A stretch of DNA of 13,009 nucleotides, from the UHGV virus genome UHGV-1799913. One strand, written 5' to 3'. Positions 4,384 to 12,869 of the stretch are shown here, piece after piece. The stretch comes from a virus. The translations under genes were made by a program, and so were the position numbers. Under the pieces are notes generated by a model. It worked only from the letters and a program-made list of their open reading frames with translations, was not told the origin of the DNA and did not search any database. Within the stretch, counting starts at the first letter, position 1. Every line of letters starts with the position of its first letter.

Positions 4384-4808
4384 CAGATATAAGCGTCGAG
4401 TGATAACTGAAGAGCCTGAGCGATTTTCTTCAGCTGTTTTTCTTCGTCTTCGCCGATGCCGTCGTTATCGGCTACGTCAAGGCACAGGCAGAGCACATCA
4501 ACTGCGTCTGGAGTATCTGCCACATCTGCAAGTTCGCGCATTGCCTGGGCATTAGCAGAGCGAGGGGACGCTTCGTACTGTGCGCGAATGTTGCTGCTCA
4601 TGATGGCGATCTCACCTGCGAAAGCAGAGAACGCTGGTTTTGCCTGAATGGTTTTCTCCAGCGTTGCAATTTCTGACGCATCACAAGTACCGTCTGCATA
4701 AGCGATCGAGTAACAGCCCCACACCGTTGCTTCAACTGCGTCGCGGTTTTCCATCTTCTTCACTTCGACGATCGCCTTGCGTGCTTTTTTCTTAAACAGT
4801 CCGAACAT
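4383..4808 (-). CDS. TerB-family (tellurite-resistance TerB-like) protein, 141 aa
   Basis: Two ADG/acidic repeats (AYADGTCDASEIATLEK and DVADNDGIGEDEEKQLKKIAQAL) and an MFGLFKK N-terminus resemble E. coli TerB (MSFFDKVK...VASDGVSSEEK...AKSDGNFDDDEK, recalled). AAGAGGG RBS before the ATG at 4808. First sizeable gene downstream of the presumed pL. Confidence 0.55.
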   Translation of the reverse strand: MFGLFKKKARKAIVEVKKMENRDAVEATVWGCYSIAYADGTCDASEIATLEKTIQAKPAFSAFAGEIAIMSSNIRAQYEASPRSANAQAMRELADVADTPDAVDVLCLCLDVADNDGIGEDEEKQLKKIAQALQLSLDAYI

Positions 4809-5035
4809 TTGACTACCCTCTTGGTTTAAGCCATCAACTTGATGGCGACATTTGACTTACCGTCAGCCCCTCGTAAAGAGCTGCTGGTAAATCGTGTTGC
4901 CATAATTGCCGCTCCTCCTGAGCCCGCCTATGGTCCGACGCATGGTTTACTGTCGCGCCGTTCGACTGACCGAATCTCCACTTCGCTGCTGGCTAACTTC
5001 GCTCAGCTGTCGATGTTTCGTTTCGATGGGGTGAA

Positions 5036-5110
5036 TTTAGCGTGATGCTAAATTATGCGCAATAGCAAAATGCTAAATTGTTGAATGGTTTTATTTAGCG
5101 TATTGATTAA
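5036..5110. promoter_or_regulatory. OL-like operator cluster / presumed pL region
   Basis: Three 17-mers matching TTTAGC-N5-GCTAAA: 5036-5052 tttagcgtgatgctaaa (perfect half-sites), 5061-5077 aatagcaaaatgctaaa, 5094-5110 tttagcgtattgattaa. Lies between the cI terminator and the leftward operon. Confidence 0.45.
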
Positions 5111-5149
5111 TAAGCGATTAAAAATTTACAGCGAAGGAATTCGGGACGT

Positions 5150-5173
5150 AAAAAAGCCCGCGCGATGGCGGGC
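5150..5173 (-). terminator. putative rho-independent terminator downstream of the repressor gene
   Basis: Minus strand: GCCCGC-CATCGC-GCGGGC stem-loop followed by TTTTTT (plus A-run 5150-5155), about 20 nt after the cI stop. Confidence 0.5.
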
Positions 5174-5193
5174 TTGAGGGGTTTTGCGTGAGG

Positions 5194-5871
5194 TTATGGG
5201 ATGTTTAGTATTTTGGCATCAACCACAACGCCGATGATTTTGCAGTTTCCATTAATTTCTAGCATTGGATATGCGGGGTTAAGGGGCTTTAGGAAGCGTC
5301 TGCCGGCATCGATTACAAGCTTCTTAAAGGTCGCTTCGTTATCGCCTTCTAGCTTCGCGACAACCAGCTTTCCGTTGCGCGGCTCGACTTCAGGATCAAC
5401 AAGTATCGCTGCTCCCTCGGGTATGCTCAGTCCAGCCGGGGAGGTCATAGAATCCCCTTTAACGTCCAGCCAGAATGAATCTTCTGAGCAGTCAACAGTC
5501 GTGTCATACCAGCGATCTATCGCTCTTCGGTGATAAGGTTCTACAGCTTCCATCCATTGCCCCGCGCTTACCCAGCTGATTACAGGATAACTTCCTTTTG
5601 TCTCGTTCAGTCCTCGAAATGAAACGTTCGAAGGTTCTTCACTGGCGTGTAAAACATCCATCCAGCCAAAAGGCAGATCAAGCGCAGTTTCAATTTTGCG
5701 AGCCATCTTATCGCCGATATTGCGATGAGGGTTTGGTCCCAGTAGCTGGCTAAGCGCAGCCGGACTTGTCTCGATGAGCTCGGCAAACTGCGCTTTGGTC
5801 ATTCCAGACTCGTGCTGACGCTTCTCGTACAGCGCTTCCAGGTTGGCTTTTCTGATTTCTTTATTTTCCAT
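5194..5871 (-). CDS. cI: CI-like prophage repressor, LexA/S24 peptidase family (HTH plus autocleavage domain)
   Basis: From ATG 5871: MENKEIRKANLEALYEKRQHESGMTKAQFAELIETSPAALSQLLG (HTH), an Ala-Gly linker site (WVSAGQW), and a C-terminal S24 domain with GDSM (Ser) and a downstream Lys (VVAKLEG). Divergent to the cro-like gene and flanked by operator-like repeats. The track start at 5988 is a TTG inside the operator region and is rejected. Confidence 0.8.
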   Translation of the reverse strand: MENKEIRKANLEALYEKRQHESGMTKAQFAELIETSPAALSQLLGPNPHRNIGDKMARKIETALDLPFGWMDVLHASEEPSNVSFRGLNETKGSYPVISWVSAGQWMEAVEPYHRRAIDRWYDTTVDCSEDSFWLDVKGDSMTSPAGLSIPEGAAILVDPEVEPRNGKLVVAKLEGDNEATFKKLVIDAGRRFLKPLNPAYPMLEINGNCKIIGVVVDAKILNIP

Positions 5872-5889
5872 ACCTGCATTGTTACTGCT

Positions 5890-5955
5890 TTTAGCAAAAT
5901 GATAAATGTGCAAATTGCTAAATGATGCTTGCGTAGTATTTAGCATAACGCTAAA
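5890..5955. promoter_or_regulatory. OR-like operator cluster with divergent promoters (pRM/pR equivalents)
   Basis: 17-mers 5939-5955 tttagcataacgctaaa (perfect inverted repeat TTTAGC-N5-GCTAAA) and 5890-5906 tttagcaaaatgataaa, plus a weaker one around 5906-5922, in the 116-bp gap between the divergent cI and cro-like starts. Confidence 0.5.
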
Positions 5956-5987
5956 CTCCAAATCAAACGACTCACCCGGAGACACCA

Positions 5988-6221
5988 ATGAGCACTGAAC
6001 TACACCGCTGGCGCAAGGCCGCCACTACCGACGAATGGGCGCAGCTCGCAAAGTTGGCTAACACGACGCCAGGTTACCTGGACCAGATCGCCTACGGAAA
6101 TCGCCGGGCATCTCCAGAAATGGCATCTGCTATCGAGAAAGGCACGAAGAATTTTCACCGCCAGGCTCCGGTCCTAAAAGAAAGCCTGGTATTCGCATCG
6201 CCGCGTGATACTGCGGCCTAA
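5988..6221 (+). CDS. Cro-like small HTH DNA-binding protein (first gene of the rightward operon)
   Basis: 77 aa; GGAG 6 nt before the ATG; HTH-like segment DEWAQLAKLANTTPGYLDQIAYGNRRASPEMASAIEKGT; divergent from cI across the operator region. Confidence 0.6.
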   Translation: MSTELHRWRKAATTDEWAQLAKLANTTPGYLDQIAYGNRRASPEMASAIEKGTKNFHRQAPVLKESLVFASPRDTAA

Positions 6222-6238
6222 CCACGAAAGGGAAAGCA

Positions 6239-6784
6239 ATGCATTCACTTGCGTATCAACAAGGTAACAAATTTTCGCCAACGGCGATGATTTACCAGAA
6301 TCGCCGGGAGCCTGATTCCACGGCGTTAAACATCGATGGGATCCGCGCAGCTGTTCGCGCCTGGGCAGCTGATTGCCGAAGCCGTGAATTTGTCGCCGCG
6401 CTGATCGTGGAAGAGTGGCGGGCGTCCGGCGGAACCGGTCTGGATATCCCGACTGACTCGCACCGCCAGATGCAGAAAGTGTTTCGATGGATTGATGGTG
6501 ATACCGAATACGCCGCCAACAACATTCGCCAGCTGGCCCCGGCAATCATGTCGGTCCTGCCGCTGGAGTACCGAAACCGTCTGGCGCCGCAGAACGACAC
6601 GATGTCGCTGATCGCCTCTGCGATGAAAGAGTGTGCCGAGGCTAAACAGGCCGTGCTGCTGGACGCTCCAGAGCATCAGAAGCTCAAAGAGGTAAGCGAG
6701 GGTATAGCGTCGCTGTTCCGCCTCATGCCGGAGCAGGTAGGAACGCTGATGACGATGGTTACATCGATGCTGGGGGTTATATGA
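6239..6784 (+). CDS. YdaT-like protein (Rac/CP-933P YdaT family, reported as a CII functional analogue)
   Basis: EEWRASGGTGLDIP...HRQMQKVFRWIDGDTEYAANNIRQLAPAIMSVLPLEYRNRLA parallels E. coli YdaT as I recall it (EEYLRQGGGELPLV...YHRWLKGETKTQREKIQKLIPAILAILPRELRHRL). Lies in the cII position after the cro-like gene. Confidence 0.6.
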   Translation: MHSLAYQQGNKFSPTAMIYQNRREPDSTALNIDGIRAAVRAWAADCRSREFVAALIVEEWRASGGTGLDIPTDSHRQMQKVFRWIDGDTEYAANNIRQLAPAIMSVLPLEYRNRLAPQNDTMSLIASAMKECAEAKQAVLLDAPEHQKLKEVSEGIASLFRLMPEQVGTLMTMVTSMLGVI

Positions 6785-6869
6785 GAGGCACAAGAAAAGA
6801 AAAAGCCCTTGAAGCGGTAACTTCAAAGGCCCTTATCACACTGTGTTACGCCAAGTAACGGGAGTAAGT

Positions 6870-10231: not shown

Positions 10232-10359
10232 AAACTAACAACCACCCGGCGCACGGCCCTGTATCACTCGATCGCCTGCACCAGATAAGCGAAATACTCA
10301 GCAAAGCAGCAGCGCAAAGCGACGGCGGTAATCTCGGCTACGCAATGGCAGGTGATTGA
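10228..10359 (+). CDS. hypothetical small protein (43 aa), last gene of the coupled chain
   Basis: Hand-translated MKTNNHPAHGPVSLDRLHQISEILSKAAAQSDGGNLGYAMAGD. ATG overlaps the upstream stop (ATGA). Below the track cutoff; no other support. Confidence 0.3.
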   Translation: MKTNNHPAHGPVSLDRLHQISEILSKAAAQSDGGNLGYAMAGD

Positions 10360-10420
10360 TGAAGTTTTAGCAGGTAGGAATGCGGTGCGGGTAGAGCCAA
10401 ATTTGATGTATAAAACGAAG

Positions 10421-10447
10421 AAGGGGCCGACATTTGTCGACCCCTTA
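10421..10447 (-). terminator. stem-loop terminator candidate at the 3' end of the tRNA-like element
   Basis: Minus strand AAGGGGTCGACAAATGTCGGCCCCTT (10-bp stem with one mismatch) followed by a T-rich tract CTTCGTTTTAT. It could also act on plus-strand read-through from the upstream operon. Confidence 0.4.
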
Positions 10448-10539
10448 AATAGGGTGCGGGGTTCGAACCCGCGGTACGGGTTTATAGCCCGTACGCCTCA
10501 TTATCAGTGAGGTGCCATCAACCACTCGGCCAACCCTCC
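10448..10539 (-). tRNA. tRNA-like element, type II (long variable arm), anticodon GAU by fold; imperfect acceptor stem, no encoded CCA; possible pseudogene or non-canonical phage tRNA
   Basis: Minus strand GGAGGGT-TG-GCC-GAGTGGTTGAT-GGC-A-CCTCA-CTGATAA-TGAGG-CGTACGGGCTATAAACCCGTACC-GCGGG-TTCGAAC-CCCGC-ACCCTAT. Cloverleaf has a canonical T-arm (GGTTCGAAC) and Ser/Leu-like D-loop (GCCGAGTGGTTGA), a 7-bp variable-arm hairpin, and a 5-bp anticodon stem with loop CU-GAU-AA. The acceptor has a G2-A71 mismatch and a G1-U72 pair. Confidence 0.5.
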
Positions 10540-10629
10540 GTTGTACCTTGCAAGCAAGGGGTGAAAGAAATATAGCATTATGATTTAAAAAATAAAGTGA
10601 ATTATCATCGAATAACATTACCAAAAATA

Positions 10630-10680
10630 GCCATGACCACACTTTTCTTTTGTATAATCCCTCCCAAAGTATCGAGGGGG
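10630..10680 (+). promoter_or_regulatory. putative promoter (extended -10 TGTATAAT) with adjacent inverted repeat
   Basis: tgtataat at 10651-10658 followed directly by ccctccc-N-gaggggg (10659-10680), then AAGGAGAAG RBS and the GTG start at 10702. Confidence 0.35.
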
Positions 10681-10701
10681 ACTCATCAAGGAGAAGATAA
10701 A

Positions 10702-11043
10702 GTGAAATATTTGGCGATCACGTTGTTAGGAATTGGCTTTCTTATGCCCCATGCCGTTGAAGCAAAGGAATATGTATGCTCTGGAATAGCAAGGAGTATG
10801 ACCTCAAATGAAGTAAAATCCGGCGAAGTAAAGGCAAATATAACTGACATCGGAAATTCAATAACAGTTAACTTTGGGACCATTTCTTACACCACAAGCA
10901 AGATTAGGCCAGAAAAACCGGAAGGAAAGACATACCCATCTGGTGCGACTAAAGAGGGCAATATTATACAAAGACGTGGAGATGGTGATTACCGATTCTT
11001 TCAAATGTCTCAGGGTGATGTAGTGCAATTTACCTGCAAATAA
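10702..11043 (+). CDS. small secreted/periplasmic protein (113 aa) with Sec signal peptide; moron-type cargo gene
   Basis: GTG start at 10702 after AAGGAGAAG inside track ORF 10597..11043. N-terminus MKYLAITLLGIGFLMPHAVEA-KE has a hydrophobic core and an AxA cleavage motif. Mature protein has two Cys (YVCSG, FTCK). AT-rich codon usage by eye. Confidence 0.55.
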   Translation: MKYLAITLLGIGFLMPHAVEAKEYVCSGIARSMTSNEVKSGEVKANITDIGNSITVNFGTISYTTSKIRPEKPEGKTYPSGATKEGNIIQRRGDGDYRFFQMSQGDVVQFTCK

Positions 11044-11142
11044 AATTGAACGAATTTCAACCAGGTTAGGCGGTTTTTATTTTTGGCTGTGCCCCCGTTC
11101 GCTGTAGCACTGGTGAGGGCTAACCTGCCGGAACTATGCCAG

Positions 11143-11198
11143 TCGAAACAAATCGCGGCCTGACCTATAATCCCCTCCATAACTCAAGGGGATTTTTT
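11143..11198 (+). promoter_or_regulatory. putative promoter (-10 TATAAT at 11166-11171) with 7-bp inverted repeat sequestering the SD
   Basis: tataat followed by ATCCCCT-N10-AGGGGAT (11170-11193), then TTTTTT and the ATG at 11199. The AGGGGA arm is also the only SD-like element for the downstream gene. Confidence 0.35.
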
Positions 11199-11381
11199 AT
11201 GTCAAACGAAGAAATGACACCTGCCGAAAAATACAAAGCGGCGAGGAAGCGATATAAAAAACACTGGCTTCAATCCGATATAGCAAACGCTAAGCGCTTT
11301 GAGGCTGATGATGTGGCCCCTGTAGATGGTTACAGGTCTCCTTACGAAACGAGGAAAAAAAGAGGGAGAACAGCAGATTAA
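11199..11381 (+). CDS. small basic protein (60 aa), first gene of the moron cassette
   Basis: Start at ATG 11199 inside track ORF 11136..11381: [25 protein letters not shown]...RKKRGRTAD, Lys/Arg-rich. Stop overlaps the next start (TAATG). Confidence 0.45.
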
Positions 11382-11635
11382 TGTCACATTTTAATATCGC
11401 AGAAAAATCGAAAGAAGAGCAGGACAAGGCTAACGTGGACCTGGCTGCCAGTGGCGTAGCGTACAAAGAGCGCCTGAACATGCCGGTTATCGCTGAGGTG
11501 GTGATGCGTGAGCAGCCCGAGCATTTGCGTGATTACTTCCTTGAGCGTCTGAAGTTTTATCGCGAGAAGTCGATAGATTTACCAAGGGCATCCGATCCGC
11601 GGTACATGGAAATGGCTGATTCTAATAAAAAATAA
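11381..11635 (+). CDS. hypothetical protein (84 aa)
   Basis: Track ORF; start coupled to the upstream stop. No family recognised. Confidence 0.5.
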
Positions 11636-11686
11636 GCCCTAACGTGTTGATGACCTTATCAGACCTAAACAGGAGGTTTTTCTAAA

Positions 11687-12226
11687 GTGATTAATATCAT
11701 TGTTGATTCCAATGCTTGGAATTTTTTACATGTGAGTGGGATCTCCTTAAGCAACGAGCTTCTTAGCGATTATAACTTTCAGATAACATTAGAGGTGTCT
11801 CGTGAATTGCAGGAGTTAGTGGGCAAGGAAGGGAAGGAAGCTCTTTATGAATTCTTTGTAAGTGAGACTCAGTCGCTTGAAGAGCCCTTATGCTATTTTG
11901 GTTTTTACAATGAGTCAGTGCCTGCTGATGAACAGCGGTTTGGTGGATTTGGTGTTGGCGGGTTCGCATCTGTTCATCAAGATGATTATTTTCAGAAAAC
12001 ATTCCGCCAAATAAAATCATCAAAGCGTGGTATTTATTATGGCAATGAAGCTGACATGCTGATCGGGTCAAGAGGAATTGGGAACACTTTCATACTAACA
12101 GAAGATAATAATAAGTCAGGCCCGATGAAAGAGGCTGAGAACACTATCTTTGTTTCAAGAAAATTTCCTATGACTGTGGAGCAGTTTAAGGAATATCTTG
12201 ATCTTGAAATCTCAAAAACTCTTTAG
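11687..12226 (+). CDS. hypothetical protein (179 aa) with possible PIN-like nuclease motifs
   Basis: GTG start 10 nt after AGGAGG. N-terminal hydrophobic strand with Asp (IIVDSNAW), a downstream Glu-containing helix (TLEVSRELQEL), and a C-terminal NEADMLIGSRGIGNTFILTED segment recalling the VapC/PIN pattern (D...E...D...T-x-D). Assignment is motif-level inference only. AT-rich by eye. Confidence 0.5.
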   Translation: MINIIVDSNAWNFLHVSGISLSNELLSDYNFQITLEVSRELQELVGKEGKEALYEFFVSETQSLEEPLCYFGFYNESVPADEQRFGGFGVGGFASVHQDDYFQKTFRQIKSSKRGIYYGNEADMLIGSRGIGNTFILTEDNNKSGPMKEAENTIFVSRKFPMTVEQFKEYLDLEISKTL

Positions 12227-12302
12227 TTACTGCGCTTTGATTTTTCATAATCACTCCGCCATAATCATGTCATCGGAGCCTGAACAACTCCGGTGACTTC
12301 TT

Positions 12303-12326
12303 CGCATTTAAGGGGACTTAAATGCG
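12303..12326. repeat. perfect 10-bp inverted repeat with 4-nt loop
   Basis: cgcatttaag-ggga-cttaaatgcg (12303-12326), no T-tract on either side; lies at the junction between the AT-rich cassette and the NinB-like gene. Confidence 0.6.
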
Positions 12327-12413
12327 ACCACAATCTGAACTCATCGCCTTGTCACAGATGCAGACATGCACCTGCGATTTTCTGCATTCTGCGGTTTCCG
12401 TTAAGGAGGCCGT

Positions 12414-12869
12414 ATGACTCTGCCAGCAGACGGCATCAAACTCCATCGCGGCAACTTCGCGGCCATTGGCCAGCAGATTCAGCCATTGCTGGATGCCGGG
12501 CAATGCTTCCGCCTGCAAGTCAAACCGTGGCGCGAGAAGCGCAGCCTGTCGCAGAACGCGCTCAGCCACATGTGGTACACGGAAATTAGCGAGTACCTCA
12601 TCGCCCGCGGCAAGACCTTCGCTACGCCTGAGTGGGTCAAAGACGCGATGAAGCACACCTATCTCGGCTATGAGAGTAAAGACCGGGTAGACGTCGTGTC
12701 CGGAGAGGTGACCACAGTTCAATCTCTCCGCCATACCGCCGATCTGGAAACCGGCGAGATGTACATTTTCCTGTGCAAAGTCGAAGCCTGGGCGATGAAC
12801 ATCGGCTGTCACCTGACCATCCCGCAGAGCTGCGAGTACCAGCAGCTGCGCGATAAGCAGGAGGCCTGA
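12414..12869 (+). CDS. ninB: NinB-like recombination protein (Orf family)
   Basis: AAGGAGG RBS before the ATG. KPWREKRSLSQNALSHMWY resembles the NinB signature around RSLDQN..LW in lambda NinB (recalled). Position in the nin region downstream of P. Confidence 0.7.
   Translation: MTLPADGIKLHRGNFAAIGQQIQPLLDAGQCFRLQVKPWREKRSLSQNALSHMWYTEISEYLIARGKTFATPEWVKDAMKHTYLGYESKDRVDVVSGEVTTVQSLRHTADLETGEMYIFLCKVEAWAMNIGCHLTIPQSCEYQQLRDKQEA

Follow-up and report, generated by a model that had tools for sequence, protein, structure and literature searches.

A predicted PIN-fold gene beside a Hot-type theta gene in a mosaic accessory slot of an Escherichia coli lambdoid prophage

We analysed three adjacent plus-strand open reading frames (ORF1, ORF2 and ORF3) in UHGV virus genome UHGV-1799913, a stretch of 13,009 nucleotides (nt) which we call the window and to whose full length all coordinates refer unless another locus is named. 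The window is the early region of an Escherichia coli lambdoid prophage and contains genes for a YqaJ-like exonuclease, RecT, CI/Cro and O- and P-like replication proteins, small accessory ORFs and the gene for NinB. Sequence comparison indicated that ORF1, ORF2 and ORF3 are not one conserved cassette but an independently assorting mosaic. The overall explanation which we favour, and to which we give about an even chance of being right, is that the interval from the replication genes to ninB is an accessory slot of mosaic make-up which holds three independently assorting genes, and that the last of these, ORF3, encodes a stand-alone PIN-fold conflict enzyme of the prophage. The features of the slot and its right-hand side are as follows:

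11199 to 11381, plus strand: ORF1, a basic protein of 60 amino acids (aa) which matches phrog_16632 over its full length (E = 3e-34) and is called as a coding sequence (CDS) by the Prokaryotic Genome Annotation Pipeline (PGAP).
11381 to 11635, plus strand: ORF2, an 84-aa homologue of the DNA polymerase III theta subunit, of the P1 Hot type (PF06440, NF008207, phrog_1105, PDB 1se7/2ido).
11671 to 11676, plus strand: Shine-Dalgarno sequence AGGAGG of ORF3, read from the sequence, 10 nt before the GTG at 11687.
11687 to 12226, plus strand: ORF3, an acidic 179-aa protein (isoelectric point (pI) 4.65) with a GTG start and a predicted PIN/VapC-like fold.
12236 to 12411, plus strand: the "ninB leader", with strong hairpins at 12269-12297 and 12302-12327, identified by its conservation in phages and by folding z-scores.
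12414 to 12869, plus strand: NinB/Orf (YbcN family) recombination mediator (phrog_72, E = 2e-50; weak match to PF05772; PGAP "YbcN family protein").

The layout of the three genes is as described in an earlier reading of this DNA (the original prediction): the stop codon of ORF1 and the start codon of ORF2 overlap as TAATG (11379-11383), a gap of 51 nt, there given as 50 nt, separates ORF2 from ORF3, and the GTG start of ORF3 follows AGGAGG. All three ORFs are real genes with conserved homologues and all three are annotated as CDSs by RefSeq/PGAP in E. coli EM18-18-42, one of the 3 among 5,426 complete E. coli genomes which carry a 100% identical copy of ORF3. In this genome the PGAP gene order is replication protein P, a winged helix-turn-helix protein, small hypothetical proteins, tRNA-Ile (minus strand), two hypothetical proteins, DNA polymerase III subunit theta, a further hypothetical protein, YbcN (NinB), NinE, a metallophosphoesterase, RusA and Q. 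The first core nin-region gene past the accessory slot is ninB.

Structure prediction gave ORF3 a PIN/VapC-like fold with high confidence, and the canonical acidic residues are kept. The AlphaFold model had a predicted local distance difference test score (pLDDT) of 79.9 when 20 sequences were used, and a pLDDT of 93.4 with a predicted template modelling score (pTM) of 0.87 when 111 sequences were used. The predicted model is a three-layer alpha/beta/alpha structure with a parallel beta-sheet of PIN topology; its nearest structures are those of VapC, and PIN matches lead those to other folds by 3-4 Z units. The candidate active site comprises D7 (in IIVDSNA), E36/E40, E121/D123 and T138-E-D140, which vary little or not at all among the 20 close and the 111 wider homologues. 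E36, E40, E121 and D140 are invariant in the alignment of 111 sequences, in which D7, D123 and T34 are at least 90% conserved. D7 lies after beta1, E36/E40 at the start of the helix after beta2, E121/D123 at the start of the helix after beta3 and D140 after beta4. The PIN-like fold which the original prediction had suggested from a D/E/D/T-x-D arrangement is therefore sustained at the level of structure prediction and conserved residues. The family also shares a conserved Gly/Phe-rich insertion (residues ~62-95) between the third helix and beta3, in which F71-G72-F73, Q83-R84, G87-F88-G89 and G91 are conserved as strongly as the putative catalytic residues.

We compared ORF3 to sequence and structure collections to place its family. 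The only labelled family which it matches is phrog_26388, of "unknown function". Its homologues formed 26 clusters among 5.8 billion proteins, all from Enterobacterales and some named "PIN domain-containing" in UniRef; an exhaustive profile search gave 182 family representatives of about 180-200 aa, and a second indexed search found the family in Pseudomonas, Nitrosospira, Aquitalea, Rhizomicrobium and Gallionellaceae, all labelled "hypothetical". The gene is under purifying selection, with a ratio of non-synonymous to synonymous substitution rates (dN/dS) of 0.056 against an 83%-identical copy from Scandinavium. When ORF3 and 50 diverse relatives were compared to Pfam, NCBIfam and PADLOC nothing was significant, with single marginal matches only; two of these were to PADLOC among the 50 family members and were unrelated. 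The PADLOC-DB v2.0.0 library (2023) gave no match for ORF1, ORF2, ORF3 or the ORF at 10702-11043 described below (ORF0) at E values up to 1. The ORF3 sequence had no significant match to solved structures (profile E = 0.076 to 1o4w, and none with a second profile). A phmmer match in the PDB to YwqG (1pv5, E = 0.045) disappeared with profiles and was dropped as a chance match. No match was found by tblastn against 50,697 phage records, and a Foldseek search of the BFVD viral structures gave nothing under E = 0.16. Longer homologues (249-378 aa) were considered as informative fusions, but they contain no real additional domains and are probably start-codon or gene-call artefacts. No paper on the ORF3 family emerged from literature searches on theta/Hot in prophages, on PIN proteins in prophage exclusion, on PIN defences consisting of a single gene, or by accession and PHROG number; a prophage small RNA which was also considered, svsR (PMC12803456), maps to cI and has no relation to it. 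The predicted fold and the residues place ORF3 in the PIN-like superfamily but outside every curated PIN family. We describe its own family, which is rare, previously unmodelled and carried on mobile elements, as new: a PIN-fold family without an antitoxin and with an insertion that sets it apart.

The independent assortment of the three genes was apparent in related loci. When the window proteins were compared by tblastn to 29 loci with ORF3 homologues, ORF1 was found in 0 of the 29, including the 95-99% identical Enterobacter copies. ORF1 and theta occur without ORF3 in HK639, CobraSix and Klebsiella prophages, where either a gene for 73-92 aa or nothing lies between theta and ninB; ORF1 also occurs without theta, with cold-shock genes next to it; theta and ORF3 occur without ORF1; and ORF3 occurs alone. 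The proposal of a three-gene cassette was thus not borne out. HK639 and CobraSix are homologous to the window at 11161-11599 and again from 12235 onward, with a different 73-aa gene between, and the segment 11600-12234 has therefore been replaced. We rejected the possibility that this 73-aa gene is a remnant of ORF3, as there is no nucleotide homology across 11600-12234. Separate ORF3 cassettes are homologous to one another only from the start codon on (11685-11693), which argues that no promoter travels with ORF3.

The right boundary of the ORF3 cassette is the ninB leader. This segment is 90-96% identical in HK639, CobraSix, phi80 (IR4), HK225 and phage 82, despite the differing genes upstream of it, and its two hairpins have z-scores of -4.2 and -4.4. 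In two prophages (L002 and L023; L numbers denote loci in our collection) the 175-bp leader is directly duplicated and flanks the ORF3 gene on both sides:

L002, 5303-5476 and about 6550-6720: ninB leader copies.
L023, 4299-4474 and downstream: ninB leader copies.

Because of this duplication we consider the leader a probable homologous-recombination boundary for cassette exchange; it may also include a tR2-like terminator.

ORF3 is also compositionally foreign. Its GC content is 0.389 (0.372 at third codon positions), compared to 0.542 +/- 0.043 in 540-nt windows outside the AT-rich block (z = -3.5) and 0.583 in ninB, while ORF2, at 0.475, is not especially AT-rich. The AT-rich block extends over ~10350-12300 and also spans a minus-strand tRNA and a 113-aa ORF (ORF0, GC 0.40). 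We rejected the idea that this block is a single inserted element: in 8 E. coli genomes the tRNA and ORF0 are followed by another set of genes, comprising DinI, DUF1367 and others, and ORF1, theta and ORF3 are absent. Across the ORF3 family the GC content of the gene was under that of its flanks in 18 of 18 loci (0.03 to 0.19 lower; four bacterial orders). The original prediction had held that ORF3 is more AT-rich than the flanking genes and was horizontally acquired as an accessory gene; the per-gene values agree with the first of these statements, and the deviant GC, the variable slot and the other 73-aa gene in HK639/CobraSix uphold the second. The deviation in GC content and the variety of habitats described below are the signature of mobile accessory cargo; they would fit a function in conflict and speak against a VapBC module of the classical two-gene kind.

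ORF2, directly upstream of ORF3, matched PF06440 with 117.2 bits (cut-off 34.6; E = 2.6e-34) and NCBIfam NF008207 with 105.5 bits (cut-off 97), and its top match in the PDB was P1 HOT (1se7/2ido, E = 5.5e-31), with E. coli theta second (E = 9e-21). By sequence it is an ordinary member of the theta/Hot family and not a generic nucleic-acid binder, so that one of the small nucleic-acid-binding proteins originally proposed next to ORF3 belongs to a family with another, established biochemical role. According to PMC2528190 (which cites Chikova & Schaaper 2005 and Kirby et al. 2006), HOT can replace theta and stabilises the epsilon proofreading subunit. By homology, ORF2 would bind and stabilise the epsilon (DnaQ) proofreading exonuclease of the host DNA polymerase III. 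Theta homologues are uncommon in phages and were present in 36 of the 50,697 phage records. We know of no explanation for the benefit of Hot to phages.

We examined how often theta accompanies ORF3 in nine diverged enterobacterial ORF3 lineages of known context. Theta lies directly upstream of ORF3 in four of these (the group of the window and Enterobacter, Scandinavium, L025 and L012/26/28), with a 4-nt overlap of the two genes in L012, and about 0.9-1 kb upstream in two further lineages (L002 and L008). It is absent in the other three (L014/18/29, where ORF3 follows a DNA methylase gene; L015/16, where it follows DUF1643; and L022/24), as well as in L023. The pair is present in both the PR (nin) and PL operons. 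The linkage is therefore real and, given the rarity of theta in phages, a strong enrichment, but it is not obligatory, and ORF3 was found in none of the 36 theta-bearing phage records. Since genes 50 nt apart also tend to be inherited together, we regard functional pairing as a minority hypothesis, though a live one.

A further 95 loci from the wider family were gathered. Clustering of the ORFs within 3 kb in 84 loci of the wider family, 60 after dereplication, showed no neighbour family which was common beyond near-identical prophages, and the ORF immediately upstream of the ORF3 homologue ranged from 37 to 432 aa or was lacking altogether. A Pfam scan of the 131 nearest neighbours in the 60 dereplicated loci found no family in more than two loci; the neighbours included GmrSD (two), Fic (two), DUF4145 (two), AbiTii, YafO, a C5 methylase and conjugation genes. 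The family was found in the lambdoid nin region and PL operon, at one end of a prophage behind an HNH gene, in an integrative element close to HsdR, on a conjugative plasmid alongside TraM and GmrSD, and in an island between the tail genes of Pseudomonas prophages, next to YafO. In these Pseudomonas lundensis-type prophages (L031-L035 and L043; ~4400-6800) the ORF3 homologue lies in a reverse-oriented island within the tail-gene cluster, preceded by an 81-aa and a 65/99-aa ORF, the latter overlapping it by 4 nt, and adjoined by a YafO-toxin pair. Of all the contexts, this one alone resembles cargo expressed in the lysogen, possibly with a small partner.

Taken as a stand-alone conflict enzyme, ORF3 would be a Mg2+/Mn2+-dependent endonuclease, for which RNA would be the likelier substrate because VapC-type enzymes are its nearest structural neighbours, and it appears to work without a dedicated antitoxin. 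It would probably be transcribed by read-through of the early rightward operon and not from a promoter of its own, since it lies on the early-operon strand, a consensus scan made no promoter call in the 51-nt gap between ORF2 and ORF3, and homology among the cassettes begins at the start codon. Its role in conflict would most likely be the exclusion of competitors or an attack on RNA of the host or of its defences. The early-operon site in lambdoid phages and the transfer genes on the plasmid lead us to lean towards a benefit to the element at entry or induction, while the island in Pseudomonas and the defence genes among the neighbours point rather to a defence role. Several points weigh against this explanation. 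Nuclease activity is a prediction for every member of the ORF3 family, and the active site was placed by the order of strands and helices rather than from atomic coordinates. The enterobacterial members are strongly acidic proteins (median pI 4.7), which is unusual for an enzyme acting on nucleic acids. The timing of ORF3 expression is deduced from gene order alone. Finally, theta within 1 kb upstream of ORF3 in six of the nine lineages raises the possibility of a functional pair in place of a stand-alone gene.

PIN/VapC nucleases are normally seen as toxins which are restrained by a cognate antitoxin, and ORF3 could accordingly be a VapC-like toxin with the Hot-like theta or ORF1 as its antitoxin, killing infected cells or stabilising the prophage. 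The nearness of its fold to VapC toxins, the small same-strand gene directly upstream, the adjacency to theta which is kept from 99% to ~50% ORF3 identity and at two genome positions (including the overlap in L012), the overlapping 65/99-aa ORF of the Pseudomonas prophages and the AT-rich nature of the cargo, at times near defence or toxin-antitoxin genes, all speak for such a module. However, the ORF2 family has another experimentally known job, epsilon binding (PMC2528190); the genes upstream of ORF3 encode a theta/Hot homologue and a 60-aa protein, neither of which has an AbrB, ribbon-helix-helix (RHH), Phd/YefM or helix-turn-helix (HTH) antitoxin domain; ORF3 occurs without theta in three lineages and L023, and without ORF1 everywhere but in the E. 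coli prophage of the window; the wider family has no conserved neighbour and no PADLOC match; and theta-bearing phages (0 of 36 records) do not carry ORF3. We therefore consider a toxin-antitoxin module unlikely. The toxin-antitoxin or abortive-infection pattern seen in the original prediction is left as conjecture, with no antitoxin-type partner among the 60 loci. The association with theta could instead reflect a replication pair, in which Hot docks on epsilon and the PIN enzyme processes a flap, an RNA primer or an R-loop for the phage. Structure-specific 5' nucleases are found within the PIN-like superfamily, many genes of the nin region serve DNA transactions (NinB, NinG, RusA), theta and ORF3 have been relocated together between the PR and PL operons, and the presence of theta by ORF3 in six of nine lineages contrasts with its rarity in phage records at large. 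Yet the nearest structures to ORF3 are VapC ribonucleases and not FEN/5'-nuclease domains, the wider family contexts (Pseudomonas, Nitrosospira, Aquitalea and others) show no theta gene, co-inheritance would account for the adjacency of genes only 50 nt apart, and phages with theta usually lack ORF3; we regard such a pair as rather improbable.

A third possibility is that ORF3 is not a nuclease, and that its PIN/Rossmann-like scaffold serves as a binding module, as another hydrolase (e.g. a phosphatase) or as an inhibitor or decoy of a host defence protein. This would suit the acidity of ORF3 and its clade, the early-operon sites, the closeness of the plasmid copy to relaxase, NikA-like and TraM genes, and the finding that conservation peaks in the family-specific FGF...QR.GGFG insertion and not in a known PIN motif. 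Against it, 111 sequences keep all four acidic positions of the canonical PIN set as well as the Thr after beta2, which is hard to explain without catalysis; PIN matches beat those to other folds by the 3-4 Z units mentioned above; and acidity is not marked in the wider family (median pI 5.4-6.0, compared to 4.7 in the enterobacterial clade). We think it the least probable of the three. Beyond these, and at best a doubtful extension of the stand-alone enzyme which we favour, the family may form a new class of antitoxin-less PIN conflict nucleases of phages, plasmids and integrative elements, in which the FGF...QR.GGFG insertion gates activity and, in Enterobacterales, the partner is a Hot-type theta, with the epsilon-theta interface as sensor or target in phage-phage or phage-host conflict. 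It is more speculative still that the substrates of ORF3 are tRNAs, which would tie it to the anticodon-swapped prophage tRNA 1.1 kb upstream.

We also examined ORF1 and the sequence at its left edge. ORF1 is rich in Lys and Arg (pI 9.7), as had been noted before, and it is an uncharacterised enterobacterial prophage ORFan: it had no match in Pfam, NCBIfam or PADLOC, and its homologues formed 21 clusters, all from Enterobacteriaceae and all of about 60 aa. A longer, 81-aa version starting at 11136 was set aside, as the lengths of the homologues, the end-to-end match to phrog_16632 and the PGAP call favour 60 aa. In Klebsiella, HK639 and CobraSix prophages the next gene after ORF1 is theta, and in Kluyvera-type prophages cold-shock genes come next. 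The features at its left edge are:

11143 to 11171, plus strand: sigma-70 promoter-like match, TCGAAA-17-TATAAT (10/12 consensus).
11169 to 11198, plus strand: hairpin (8-bp stem, 10-nt loop) and U-run directly before the ATG of ORF1, supported by folding and conservation.
11161-11201 in the window, 2050-2090 in L126, 1875-1915 in L127 and 3001-3040 in L030: block of TATAAT, CCCCTC hairpin, U-run and ATG at the left edge of ORF1.

The TATAAT had been proposed as part of a promoter which drives the genes, but 10/12 matches were not enriched in the window (4 found compared to 3.3 expected from shuffles), and the TATAAT runs straight into the terminator-like hairpin and its U-run. This hairpin has a minimum free energy of -13.7 kcal/mol (z = -3.3; 0 of 200 shuffles fold equally well), its stem is kept in HK639, CobraSix and Klebsiella phage ST846-OXA48phi9.2, and the homologous element of HK639 was annotated as a "terminator" by the HK639 authors. 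The TATAAT is invariant in the four phages which share ORF1, whereas no -35 region is shared, since similarity ends at a mosaic boundary immediately before the TATAAT, at about 11161. The Shine-Dalgarno sequence of ORF1, AAGGGGA, lies inside the 3' arm of the hairpin, and the placement of this ribosome binding site suggests control of translation or termination. As promoter -10 element or terminator, the block is ambiguous.

The part of the AT-rich block upstream of ORF1 contains an odd tRNA gene and two further ORFs from the list of open reading frames or its annotation:

10448 to 10539, minus strand: prophage tRNA of 92 nt with a type II body and anticodon GAU (Ile) (Rfam tRNA, 46 bits; ARAGORN; PGAP tRNA-Ile).
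L008 4636-4728, L129 8474-8566, L130 431-517, L149 746-837, L150 2987-3078 and L151 10536-10627: copies of the tRNA scaffold.
10702 to 11043, plus strand: ORF0, a secreted-looking 113-aa ORF with GC 0.40 and a signal-peptide-like N-terminus, MKYLAITLLGIGFLMPHAVEA followed by KEY (PGAP hypothetical).
10352 to 10510, plus strand: a listed 52-aa ORF which runs across the tRNA gene of the minus strand and the terminator-like hairpin of that gene (10446-10421).

The tRNA has the long variable arm (7 bp) of a Ser/Leu-like tRNA, yet it carries the Ile anticodon GAU. Near-identical scaffolds (a Pantoea copy is ~80% identical) occur elsewhere with the anticodons GAA (Phe) and UAG (Leu), and the copies keep an upstream CACCCCTTGCTTGCAAGGTAnAA(C/T) and a downstream hairpin. 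Position 37 covaries with the anticodon (A with GAU, A with GAA and G with UAG), and compensatory changes are seen in the variable and T stems. Every copy has a G2.A71 mismatch, G1.U72 and U73, and CCA is encoded in none. The tRNA was found in 11 of the 5,426 E. coli genomes; it adjoins theta in three contexts and is present without theta or ORF3 in 8 E. coli genomes. From their sequences these genes may be a family of anticodon-swapped (mistranslating or decoy) tRNAs. ORF0 had no family match; since it accompanies the tRNA in E. coli prophages which lack ORF1, theta and ORF3, it belongs to a separate accessory module. The 52-aa ORF is probably not a gene, and PGAP shows no CDS over the tRNA.

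As a family which appears to travel alone on mobile elements and has no curated model, ORF3 and its relatives offer a small, tractable candidate for a defence or counter-defence enzyme, and their recurrent linkage to phage theta bears on the old puzzle of the benefit of Hot. The present use of these results lies in an annotation label (phrog_26388/PIN-like) and in the choice of candidates for experiments; they will come as no surprise to specialists.

The nearest known systems to ORF3 are the VapC toxins, among them Rickettsia felis VapC2 (3zvk), Shigella VapC (6sd6) and Caulobacter VapC1 (5k8j). Identity to these is only 11-17% and ORF3 matches no Pfam PIN model; unlike VapC, it has the ~35-residue Gly/Phe-rich insertion and an extra C-terminal helix, and unlike VapBC it has neither a VapB-type antitoxin nor a conserved partner gene. 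Single members of the wider family gave marginal matches (E 0.04-0.07) to DUF4411, PIN_9 and NYN/Zc3h12a in Pfam, which are consistent with the PIN-like superfamily, although none is significant and none is matched by the ORF3 of the window. ORF2 resembles bacteriophage P1 Hot, with ~70% identity over 75 residues, the same length class of 83-84 aa and a phage-borne gene, and it is closer to P1 Hot than to E. coli HolE. Unlike P1 hot, its gene lies in a lambdoid nin-region slot, and a frequent adjacency to a PIN-fold gene is undescribed for P1 hot. The slot itself, between P and ninB, corresponds to the position of lambda ren, where HK639 and CobraSix are annotated with Ren-like genes. Like lambdoid morons and other accessory genes, ORF3 is variable, non-core and compositionally deviant (GC 0.389 compared to 0.54), is present or absent between conserved flanks, and has other genes in its place in related phages. 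Unlike such morons it has no evident promoter or terminator of its own, the gap between ORF2 and ORF3 being without a promoter-like site in consensus scans and the downstream hairpins belonging to the shared ninB leader, and unlike a simple moron insertion it stands in place of an alternative 73-aa gene.

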